DNA of 32,000 bases from Candidatus Odinarchaeia archaeon (GTDB lineage Archaea > Asgardarchaeota > Odinarchaeia > Odinarchaeales > Odinarchaeaceae), in assembly GCA_029856525.1 (NCBI GenBank), contig JAHQXC010000003.1, forward strand, positions 6,370-38,369, given 5' to 3'. The position numbers and the translations under genes were made by a program. Positions 4,806-15,962 of this stretch are shown piece by piece; the first letter of the stretch is position 1; every line of letters begins with the position of its first letter. The notes beneath the pieces are model-generated. The model was not told the DNA's origin. It saw only the letters and a program-made list of their open reading frames with translations, and did not search any database.

Positions 4806-4993
4806 TAAAACTATAGTCCGGGTTATATATCCTCCTATTTAAGTTGAGTGTTTAAACGCATCTCACATGAGACTTGTTGAGAGTATATCACAACGCTTAT
4901 ATTCTAAATTAATCTTCGATAAATAATATAGGCGCTTATAGTGGATTCCACCAATTTACAGATCGTTCACAATCTTATTTGAGCTGAGATAGT

Positions 4994-5647
4994 ATGATAA
5001 ACGATAATAAATTTAAAACACCCGGTTTCCAAACCGGGACAACCACTCTCGGATTAATTTATAATGAAGGTGTTATTTTAGCCAGTGAAAGCCGCGTCTC
5101 TGAAGGATATTACGTGGCTAGTAAGACAGGTAAGAAAGTTTTAATGATAGACGACCATATAGGTATGACTATCGCCGGTTCAGTTGCAGACGCTCAATCG
5201 ATGGTTGATCAGGCTAGAGCGTTAGCGAAACTTTATTTTTATGATAAAGGCAGGAAGATGCCTGTTAAAGCAGCGGCTAAGCTTATATCGAATATTCTAT
5301 TCGGCCAGCGACCGTTGTATTTAATGACAGCGCTTCTAATAGGCGGCGTGGACGATGAGGGTCCACATCTTTTCAGTTTAGACTCCGCGGGGTCACTTAT
5401 ACCGGATAAATACACTTCCACAGGATCAGGCTCAGTGATAGCTTACGGTGTTTTAGAGGACTCTTATAAGGATGGTATGAGTGAACGTGAAGCTGTTGAA
5501 CTCTCTATAAGAGCTATCTCCGCAGCTAAGAAGCGTGATGTTTTTTCAGGTAACAAGATAAGCGTGGCTGTAATAGATAAGAAGGGGTTCAGACTGCTTT
5601 CAGATGAGGAGATAGAAGCGGTTGAGCGTAAGCTTTCAAGCCAGTGA
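4994..5647 (+). CDS. psmB: Proteasome beta subunit
   Basis: Propeptide ending QTG then catalytic TTTLGL; ASESRVS, KV, GMTIAGSVADAQ, STGSGS, RDVFSG. Confidence 0.96.
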   Translation: MINDNKFKTPGFQTGTTTLGLIYNEGVILASESRVSEGYYVASKTGKKVLMIDDHIGMTIAGSVADAQSMVDQARALAKLYFYDKGRKMPVKAAAKLISNILFGQRPLYLMTALLIGGVDDEGPHLFSLDSAGSLIPDKYTSTGSGSVIAYGVLEDSYKDGMSEREAVELSIRAISAAKKRDVFSGNKISVAVIDKKGFRLLSDEEIEAVERKLSSQ

Positions 5648-13799: not shown

Positions 13800-14645
13800 T
13801 CATTTTTCAGTTTGAATTAAATCCTTTCCAGCAGACTCGAGAAATTCAAGCACTCTATTATAGTCTTTAAAGCGTATCCGCCCGTCTACACTTAAATATA
13901 AATCTTTTGTTTGTATCTCCGTCCAGCTTCCAAGCCGGCTTAAATCAATCTCTTGCCTTCTGTTAAGCTCTATTAAACCTTTCCCGACATCGCTGCCATG
14001 GAAAACAATTTTTTCAATGCCATCAGTGCCGCTTATCTCTCTGGAACAGGATAAGCTGGCTGTTAAAACATCTTTACAGTTTGAAACAAAATCTTTTATA
14101 ACGTAAGCTGGGAAACTGATTTTATATAATTTTAAATTATAATTTTTTATTTCAGCTAAGATTTTATCGCTTTCTTTAAGACTGTTCCTGATAATTGCAA
14201 CCGCTTTCTTCACGTCGAGAAATCCGATCATGTTTTTATAAGCTTCCCGGATAGTGGATTTAACGCTTAATTTTTCAACGTTAAATAAATAATATGACTC
14301 TGATTTCAAAGGTTTTTCAATCCATAGATAAGTTTTATCAGGGTTATTTAACTTTTCTAAATCAAGTTTTAAACTATAGGCTGAAGAGATCTGTTCGATT
14401 TTATATAGTGTCCAATCATTCTCCCAGAAAACGTTTTCAGAATTTAAAGTCTTTTGTAATGCTAAATATAAGCTGATTAACCTTGGCATCTTCTTGTAAT
14501 CTAAACCTGCTGCTAACAATTCTTTAAGTTTAACACCTGTAAACCCCAGATACTTATAGAACTCCTTCAACTCGCTTTGACTGTATTGTTTTAATAATTT
14601 AGAAAGGGGGATTGTATCCACTGTTGGAATGTTTATTCTACTCAT
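13800..14645 (-). CDS. Hypothetical protein (281 aa), candidate CENP-N/Chl4-like
   Basis: ORF is solid; the family call rests on recalled motif similarity (FHGSDVGKGLIEL...IDLSRLGSW) and is unverified. Confidence 0.6.
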   Translation of the reverse strand: MSRINIPTVDTIPLSKLLKQYSQSELKEFYKYLGFTGVKLKELLAAGLDYKKMPRLISLYLALQKTLNSENVFWENDWTLYKIEQISSAYSLKLDLEKLNNPDKTYLWIEKPLKSESYYLFNVEKLSVKSTIREAYKNMIGFLDVKKAVAIIRNSLKESDKILAEIKNYNLKLYKISFPAYVIKDFVSNCKDVLTASLSCSREISGTDGIEKIVFHGSDVGKGLIELNRRQEIDLSRLGSWTEIQTKDLYLSVDGRIRFKDYNRVLEFLESAGKDLIQTEK

Positions 14646-14977
14646 ATATTCTGCTTCCAGTCTATAATAATTAAAAATATTTAATATTATCTCAAAGTAT
14701 ATAAGCTATAACCTGAATTAAAAGTTTAGACTAATACACACCTTTAGTTTTAAGATAGGAGAGGCATCGATTAAAAATTGTTTTATTATAGCGGTGTGTA
14801 AAAACGTTTAAATCATGGATGCCACGGTTAAATAATTATATTGTTAACGAGATAAAAACAGGTTTTTAGAAATATTTTATCAAAGCCATCATAGAAATCC
14901 ATGGGTTTAAAGATATGAATGCTTCCGCTTTAACTTCACAGCAGACTATCTGATGTAGATAGGTGAGAGTTGATATT

Positions 14978-14995
14978 CTTATAAAGCTATATAAA
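14978..14995 (+). promoter_or_regulatory. Putative TATA elements upstream of the E2F-like gene
   Basis: CTTATAAA 14978-14985 and TATATAAA 14988-14995. Confidence 0.45.
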
Positions 14996-15141
14996 TTATA
15001 ATTATAAATAAGGATGAGTGGTGGAAGCGGCCCTGAAACCTGTGAAGAGAAGAACTCTTCTCAATGAACAGGACTCATCTGTGAAAAACAAGTTGTAGAT
15101 CACCCGCTAATATTTGTTTAAAAATAATCGAGGCGTCTGTT

Positions 15142-15588
15142 TTGAAACTTATAGAGCTGACTAAGAAAGTAGTACACTGTCTCAGGAATTCGCCTAAACC
15201 TTTATCTGCAGTTGAAATAAGCAAGCAAATAAATCTCCCTATTGAAAAGAAGCGGAGAATCTATGATGTTTTAGACGTATTAGAGGTTTTAGATGTTATA
15301 AAAATATCTCGGCGTGGTAATGAGAAATTAGCTCAATGGATTTCTTCAACAGAGAAACCTGTTGTAAAAGAGTCTTTAGCTGTTGAGAGAAAAATAGAGG
15401 ATAAGCCTCACTGCGTTGTTAACGTTGACTTAGTTTTCCCTTCATCCGATTATAAGAATTTAAGTAATCCAACCTGGCAGGAAATGATGATTAGAGATGT
15501 TAAAAGAAACATTAAGGGTTTACTGGATATAATCGTTAACGATATTAAATTAACGGAGGCTAAGAGGATTCTAGCAGCCAGTCAGTAA
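15142..15588 (+). CDS. E2F/DP-family winged-helix DNA-binding protein (148 aa)
   Basis: LIELTKKVVHCLRNS...KKRRIYDVLDVLEVLDVI...AQWI aligns with the E2F DBD pattern (L..TKRF..LL...KRRIYDITNVLEGI.LI...IQW); TTG start with GAGG SD. Confidence 0.8.
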   Translation: MKLIELTKKVVHCLRNSPKPLSAVEISKQINLPIEKKRRIYDVLDVLEVLDVIKISRRGNEKLAQWISSTEKPVVKESLAVERKIEDKPHCVVNVDLVFPSSDYKNLSNPTWQEMMIRDVKRNIKGLLDIIVNDIKLTEAKRILAASQ

Positions 15589-15590
15589 CC

Positions 15591-15962
15591 TTAGCTTTTA
15601 TCGCTGCCTAGTATTTCAGATATATCCGCTTCTTCCTTCCCCCTTCTCTTAATTTTAATTTCAGGTCCGCGTCCCTCTATTCTTCTCTCTAAAAGCATTA
15701 TATCAGTCTTAGATATTTTAGATTGAAGGCCATACTGGTTGACTATCATTATGATTATATTCTCTATTTCCGCTGCTACAGAGGGTTTTAACTTATAAAG
15801 TTCGTTAAGATATTTTAACGCGTCTTCTTCGCAGACTAATCCGAAAAATTTAGCTTTCTCCTGTTTCACCTTCTCCTGGTATTCTTTTAATTTAGCCTGC
15901 TCGTTGATTCTCTGAATCATCTCCTTCATTTTCTTAAGTCTTATCCGCTCTAATTCATCCAT
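15591..15962 (-). CDS. PDCD5-family DNA-binding protein (divergent)
   Basis: MDELERIRLKKM N-terminus, ...KPSVAAEIENIII..., KISKTDI..L, EIKIKRRG C-terminal motif. Confidence 0.75.
   Translation of the reverse strand: MDELERIRLKKMKEMIQRINEQAKLKEYQEKVKQEKAKFFGLVCEEDALKYLNELYKLKPSVAAEIENIIIMIVNQYGLQSKISKTDIMLLERRIEGRGPEIKIKRRGKEEADISEILGSDKS

Follow-up and report, generated by a model that had tools for sequence, protein, structure and literature searches.

The window analysed here, a 32,000-nucleotide stretch of contig JAHQXC010000003.1, belongs to an Asgard archaeon of the class Odinarchaeia, in agreement with the Asgard host proposed in an initial annotation that had been made from the letters alone. 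The genome (Odinarchaeia_RPA3) comprises 1,320,653 bases on 127 contigs and is 93.4% complete. E2F/DP proteins drive the G1/S transition in eukaryotes, and an Asgard member of this family bears on the origin of cell-cycle transcription. The initial annotation described such a gene, a forward-strand open reading frame of 148 codons with a TTG start, and the reading frame is as described. The gene and its parts are as follows:

15110..15133, + strand, likely promoter and ribosome-binding region, kept upstream of the gene in 4/4 Odinarchaeota genomes (putative function)
15142..15588, + strand, E2F/DP-type coding sequence, 148 aa plus stop, TTG start (ORF list, translation)
15142..15345, + strand, E2F_TDP winged-helix domain, residues 1-68 (Pfam, AlphaFold2 model, dN/dS)
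15253..15267, + strand, codons of R38-R39-I40-Y41-D42, the RRxYD signature of the recognition helix (read from the sequence)
15346..15408, + strand, variable linker, residues 69-89 (low pLDDT, fastest evolution, length varying in the alignment)
15409..15561, + strand, Odin-type C-terminal module of no known family, residues 90-140 (conservation, model, dN/dS)

The frame is open from a stop at 15082, and it has no earlier start codon. Orthologues in three other Odinarchaeota genomes share 73-84% identity with the protein, and the TTG start is common to all four genes, which place it behind an AT-rich TATA-like box and a GAGG box (15110-15125 and 15130-15133 in the window, the GAGG ending 8 nt before the TTG). 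The gene calls of Eme et al. 2023 list orthologues with a GGAG/GAGG ribosome-binding site and a 5-10 bp spacer. Beyond the promoter block, the DNA upstream of the gene is not conserved among the four genomes and is unrelated in RPA3. Nei-Gojobori comparisons among the four orthologues, with dS near saturation, gave dN/dS values of 0.09-0.15 for the winged helix (residues 2-68), 0.07-0.44 for the linker, which is the fastest-evolving part, and 0.03-0.12 for residues 90-140, indicating strong constraint on the last of these. On this pattern the entire frame is a genuine gene under constraint, in which two parts are conserved. A look-up of sequencing runs listed no RNA run that contains it, and the one run listed is probably the source metagenome.

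The flanks of the gene differ in their conservation. Two nucleotides past the stop lies a convergent gene (15591-15962, - strand) for a PDCD5-like double-stranded DNA-binding protein (Pfam dsDNA_bind), and a gene of this kind is convergent beside the Odin-type E2F gene in three lineages, Odin, the sister family f2 and Hermod (L015, L020). In the genomes LCB_4, J65 and HHBFW (L041, L042, L043), the gene directly upstream ends with the small-GTPase motifs GNKxDL and ETSAKTG; in the window its place is taken by an uncharacterised ORF of 281 aa (13800-14645, - strand) and by unrelated DNA. The intergenic stretch that follows (14646-15141) contains a GC-richer hairpin at 15010-15092 (+ strand) with the closing stem GATGAGT...ACTCATC and a folding energy of -24.5 kcal/mol (z -3.4 against shuffles). 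The hairpin has no Rfam match, and scans of the window with Rfam and tRNA models likewise returned none. The stretch that holds it lies upstream of the E2F gene in RPA3 and not in the three other Odinarchaeota, and the segment 14962-15022 resembles a copy on contig C93 (78% over 64 nt).

The initial annotation assigned residues 1-68 to the E2F/DP DNA-binding domain almost end to end, and the Pfam search that it proposed bears this out. E2F_TDP (PF02319) scored 36.3 bits (E 4.8e-9), above its gathering cut-off of 25.7, with residues 4-66 aligned onto profile positions 6-63 of 65, and the second-best Pfam family reached E 0.009, under its own cut-off. A six-frame search of the genome returned a single E2F_TDP match, at 37.4 bits. 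The KRRIYD motif occupies residues 37-42, in the recognition helix where it had been placed from the letters; R38, R39, Y41 and D42 are invariant across 26 Asgard sequences and 29 further representatives, and W66 of the terminal QW is invariant in the 26 Asgard relatives. In the alignment to E2F4 (1cf7_A), KRRIYDVLDVLE is paired with KRRIYDITNVLE, and Asp45 stands where E2F4 has Asn, so that the substitution noted after RRIYDxx is real. The RRIYD of the Odin protein aligns to the RRIYD of both E2F4 and E2F8.

Searches with single sequences and with family profiles pointed in the same direction. The Odin protein by itself gave weak PDB matches to E2F8 and E2F4 alone. A profile of the 26 Asgard relatives, searched against all PDB sequences, matched E2F8 (2.7e-12), E2F4 (2.2e-9) and DP2 (8.4e-4) over nearly the whole domain, with no other chain or winged-helix family below E 0.25. 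An Odin-type profile built from 8 proteins gave 55 matches among 1.84 billion representative proteins, and every one of the 55 carries E2F_TDP, some of them together with the eukaryotic E2F_CC-MB domain.

The AlphaFold2 model of the domain (pLDDT ~85) has helices at residues 3-16, 23-30 and 34-49, the last being the recognition helix, and strands at 53-58 and 61-66. Comparison of the model with the PDB by Foldseek and VIA-align ranked PerR, ArsR, MarR, Z-alpha and similar domains first, with Z values of 10-11 for hundreds of chains; no E2F/DP chain was among the top 50, and the C-terminal module was barely covered. The initial annotation had named two outcomes that would speak against its reading, the lack of a significant E2F_TDP match and a best structural and phylogenetic placement among generic archaeal winged helices with a convergent RRIYD. 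A significant match is present, and on that part the reading stood; the structural ranking does place generic winged helices first. A fold match over ~65 residues is not discriminating, however, and the structure therefore neither supports nor contradicts the E2F/DP assignment. Because the structural matches are generic, the identity of the protein is settled by sequence and not by fold. One could take these rankings, together with a sub-threshold match to TrmB (E 0.086) and the relatives that reach the TrmB cut-off, to mean that the protein is a generic archaeal winged-helix regulator of the TrmB, MarR or ArsR kind, in which RRIYD is convergent and the likeness to E2F has no evolutionary meaning. 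E2F_TDP nevertheless exceeds TrmB by 23 bits and passes a curated cut-off, and the specificity of the family profile within the PDB and the uniform E2F_TDP content of its remote matches make convergence from a generic winged helix very unlikely, to the point that we find it hardly credible. These comparisons instead support the protein as a genuine E2F/DP-type winged-helix protein of an Asgard archaeon.

In eukaryotic E2F-DP, RRxYD contacts the GC core of TTTSSCGC (E2F4-DP2-DNA structure 1CF7). Compared with these typical E2F1-6/DP proteins, the Odin protein has a winged helix that is alike almost end to end, with KRRIYD and the terminal Trp in common, but it differs in nearly everything around it. 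It carries Asp45 for the Asn of RRIYDxxN, lacks an N-terminal arm before helix 1 (the domain begins at residue 1), and has neither a coiled-coil/marked-box domain (PF16421 E2F_CC-MB, or the DP domain) nor a transactivation or pocket-protein-binding tail. As had been proposed, residues 69-148 contain no coiled-coil/marked-box or pocket-binding region that Pfam can match at E <= 1, and in their place the protein has a C-terminal module of its own. The description of the protein as stand-alone also holds, since the genome, 93.4% complete, gives a single E2F_TDP match and has no DP partner gene, and where the eukaryotic proteins form an E2F-DP heterodimer, the Odin protein would need a homo-oligomer. 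In the atypical E2F7 and E2F8, E2F_TDP occurs twice in tandem (structure 4YO2). No PDB sequence scores better with the Asgard profile than E2F8, and E2F7/E2F8 share with the Odin protein the absence of DP; they provide both DNA-contacting domains from one chain, whereas the Odin protein has a single domain.

Whether the protein had been reported before was a question left by the initial annotation, and it has. The E2F/DP table of Eme et al. 2023 (Nature 618:992) lists an identical sequence as 'E2F/DP PF02319 Odinarchaeia_RPA3..RPA3_01140', so that both the protein and the family were already known, and the Odin protein is one member of that published set, with no difference in identity. According to Supplement 4.1.5 of that study, Asgard E2F/DP homologues (arCOG02749) span most Asgard groups, are absent from other archaea and keep the base-contact residues. 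The same authors describe the homology as confined to the DNA-binding domain, with regulator-binding and dimerisation domains missing, and consider the Asgard homologues the probable source of eukaryotic E2F/DP. Asgard E2F is also cited in the 2024 review 'The Archaeal Cell Cycle', and the NCBI entry of the LCB_4 orthologue, which shares 82% identity, bears the name 'E2F family transcription factor [Candidatus Odinarchaeum yellowstonii]'. The protein is thus a confirmed, already known family member, and its presence in Asgard archaea adds no new fact. New here are a defined C-terminal module of the Odin type and a lead to a candidate target upstream of orc1/cdc6-1; neither the Odin/Hermod module nor the GGCGC word upstream of orc1/cdc6-1 is mentioned in the Eme et al. 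sequence table or in Supplement 4.1.5.

Across Asgard archaea, E2F_TDP exceeds its cut-off in 122 of 301 sampled genomes, and in 0 of 14 control genomes. The distribution follows families, some being rich in the domain (f6 68/76, f12 17/19, f14 9/11) and others giving no match at all (f9 0/68, f4 0/29, f21 0/21), and each of the three other Odin genomes has one match. Alignment of the Asgard relatives separates two forms that share E2F_TDP with its invariant RRxYD and Trp, both of them small proteins made of a single domain plus a tail. The Thor-type form is ~183 aa long (the relatives retrieved with the f6 query bear Thorarchaeota names at NCBI), and its tail begins with a 42-residue helix, continues with a four-stranded beta module and ends in a further helix, in place of the short extended-helix-extended module of the Odin type. 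Foldseek on the Thor-type model gave BusR (winged helix, coiled coil and RCK_C) as top match with a poor TM-score, and listed no E2F/DP CC-MB chain. Full-length Odin-type proteins form just four 50%-identity clusters among the 1.84 billion proteins, from MAGs labelled Odinarchaeota, Hermodarchaeota, 'Hodarchaeota' and 'Promethearchaeota', and three genomes of f2 carry one copy of each form. We also note a 113-aa KRRVYD protein (L040:2986-3327, + strand) on a MAG labelled 'Candidatus Bathyarchaeota' (HyVt-197), which is a near-copy of P0010, itself scoring 48 bits on E2F_TDP. Unless this MAG is mislabelled, the family extends beyond Asgard archaea, against the published statement.

The Odin-type tail is a module of ~55 residues, separated from the winged helix by a linker whose pLDDT falls below 50 over residues 70-85. 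In the AlphaFold2 model it comprises an extended segment, a helix at residues 101-123 and a second extended segment (pLDDT 81-87). Nine sequences share the invariant residues F99, L107, M115, R118, D119, K121, R122 and L137, and the helix bears the charged R118, D119, K121 and R122. A profile of this region had no match among PDB sequences, and an ESM Atlas look-up of residues 80-148 gave no usable match. Comparison of the Odin-type and Thor-type tails by hhalign gave a probability of 0.1%, that is, no detectable relation, and on this comparison the two tails appear to be unrelated.

Given the conserved RRxYD helix, we consider it quite probable that the gene product is a small regulator of the E2F/DP type that binds double-stranded DNA sequence-specifically. 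A different function might be read from the tail, which is under tighter constraint than the winged helix and carries the conserved R-D-x-K-R patch; with Z-alpha and Hop2 domains among the top structural matches, the winged helix could mainly bind protein, RNA or non-B-DNA in the manner of Z-alpha, Hop2 or cullin-type domains, leaving the C-terminal module with the real function. The residues that the family holds invariant are, however, exactly the base-contacting RRxYD of E2F/DP, and the structural matches on which this reading draws are non-specific, and we regard it as very improbable.

For the E2F/DP-type regulator, DNA specificity, oligomeric state and targets are what we infer from here on. 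By analogy with E2F-DP, the conserved RRxYD helix points to recognition of a GC core, and the winged helix would be expected to recognise, through the major groove, a core of the GCGC type. With one copy and no DP in Odinarchaeota, a homo-oligomer is the simplest model, probably a dimer, which might pair through winged-helix contacts, through its own C-terminal module, or through both. If one part is to be named for pairing or regulation, the strongly constrained module is the natural candidate. In a two-copy complex prediction the score was 0.40, below the mark of 0.42, and one unrelated control reached 0.52, which speaks neither for nor against a dimer. The protein is a convenient test object for these predictions, being 148 aa long, from a thermophile and single-copy.

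The candidate target is a GGCGC-core word ~150 nt upstream of orc1/cdc6-1, the gene of the replication initiator. All 9 genomes taken from three Odin-type lineages (4 Odin, 3 f2, 2 Hermod) have an E2F-like word with this core at -147 to -157; the lineages are few and related, so that the comparison of sites is weak. All four Odin genomes have the GGCGC core at -153 to -157, reading ATGGCGCTT on the reverse strand, without a T-run. The three f2 genomes carry the word TTTTTGGCGCG at -147 and also TGGCGCC at -220, flanked by TTCACA and TGTGAA, and the two Hermod genomes carry TTTGGCGCG on the reverse strand at about -150 together with the palindrome TTGGCGCCAA; the palindromes of the sister lineages at this gene are TGGCGCCA or TTGGCGCCAA. 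TTGGCGCS is infrequent (14-33 occurrences per f2 genome, 76-124 per Hermod genome), and a match at the same distance in separate lineages is therefore not expected by chance. None of five genomes from families without E2F (f4, f9) has the GGCGC pentamer within 300 nt upstream of orc1/cdc6-1, in upstream DNA that is AT-richer at 18-33% GC, and among Thor-type lineages one of five has a site, TTTGGCGC at -291. The intergenic region between rfcL and tfb, which are divergent, contains a second site in the Odin genomes (CTGGCGCTTAG), and its sequence varies from species to species.

The orc1/cdc6-1 word is an E2F lead that may also be an origin element, bound by Orc1 or by another factor. Canonical ORB boxes lie near the site in Hermod, and for this reason the region is probably oriC. 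The protein could accordingly bind DNA at the origin or as part of chromatin, acting at oriC beside orc1/cdc6-1, for example by modulating origin firing, instead of being a promoter-level factor. In keeping with this, the sole site conserved across three lineages adjoins orc1/cdc6-1, no wider regulon is visible (the 51 upstream regions with GGCGC precede genes of unrelated functions), and the conserved convergent neighbour of the E2F gene is itself predicted to bind double-stranded DNA. Binding at the site is itself a prediction, however; promoter control would explain at least equally well why the word keeps a fixed distance from the orc1 start codon, and the rfcL/tfb site is away from any known origin. 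We therefore consider an origin role of this kind improbable.

Returning to a promoter-level E2F/DP-type regulator, the sequence comparisons give binding of this protein to the orc1/cdc6-1 upstream site a real but minority chance; such binding would make the eukaryotic link from E2F to ORC1/CDC6 ancestral. A fuller model, in which the Odin/Hermod form is a homodimer held by the C-terminal module and binds GGCGC words of the TGGCGCCA type ~150 nt upstream of orc1/cdc6-1, and in Odinarchaeota also at rfcL/tfb, is offered tentatively, as we think it unlikely to hold in every part. If true, it would place E2F control of ORC1/CDC6 and replication genes before the eukaryotes. The orc1/cdc6-1 word and the rfcL/tfb intergenic site now provide concrete probes. 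Separately, at ~4925-4945 of the window, 63 nt upstream of a proteasome beta subunit ORF (4994-5647, + strand), lies the word TATAGGCGCTTATAG, which resembles both the orc1/cdc6-1 word and a site on contig C61 upstream of an AAA-type gene (TATAGGCGCTCATAG).

Searches for further targets were mostly negative. TTTSSCGC occurs 71 times in the genome against ~84 expected, and 6 of the 71 occurrences are intergenic, with no enrichment in either case. Upstream of the E2F gene itself, the four Odin genomes share no conserved GC-rich or E2F-like word that would suggest autoregulation, and the promoters of ftsZ1, ftsZ2, cdc6-2 and cdc6-3 contain no conserved E2F-like word. Most intergenic matches to E2F words are RNA genes or a repeat specific to the RPA3 genome, and an intergenic excess of CGCGCG is accounted for by tRNA/rRNA genes and repeats. 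Four of the six intergenic TTTSSCGC matches, in which GCGGGAAA stands just behind a TTTAACTTTATC box, were considered as operators and rejected because they belong to a 16-copy repeat that other Odin species with the same protein lack.

This repeat starts with AACTTTATCGGCGGGAAG; behind its TATA-like box comes a GC-rich hairpin whose stem shows compensatory changes. Copies lie at C3:4621, C10:5046, C29:13198, C35:181, C43:652, C93:3503 and ten further positions; the family is almost confined to RPA3, and the three other Odin genomes have no more than one copy each. It matched neither Rfam nor tRNA models and may represent a strain-specific family of small RNAs or mobile elements.

Two further upstream regions contain conserved elements of other kinds. 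About 110-190 nt upstream of cdc6-2 (L048/L049/L050) lies a conserved GC-rich block with the stem GGGCGTTCA...TGAACGCCC and with CTGA and GATGA-like boxes, which looks like a C/D-box-type small RNA gene. The promoters of both ftsZ paralogues share CGACTTAAA in 4/4 Odinarchaeota genomes (ftsZ1, L057/L056/L059/L058; ftsZ2, L060/L063/L062/L061), and at ftsZ1 it forms part of a perfectly conserved palindrome, CGACTTAAA-N21-TTTAAGTCG, a candidate cell-division operator that is not E2F-like.
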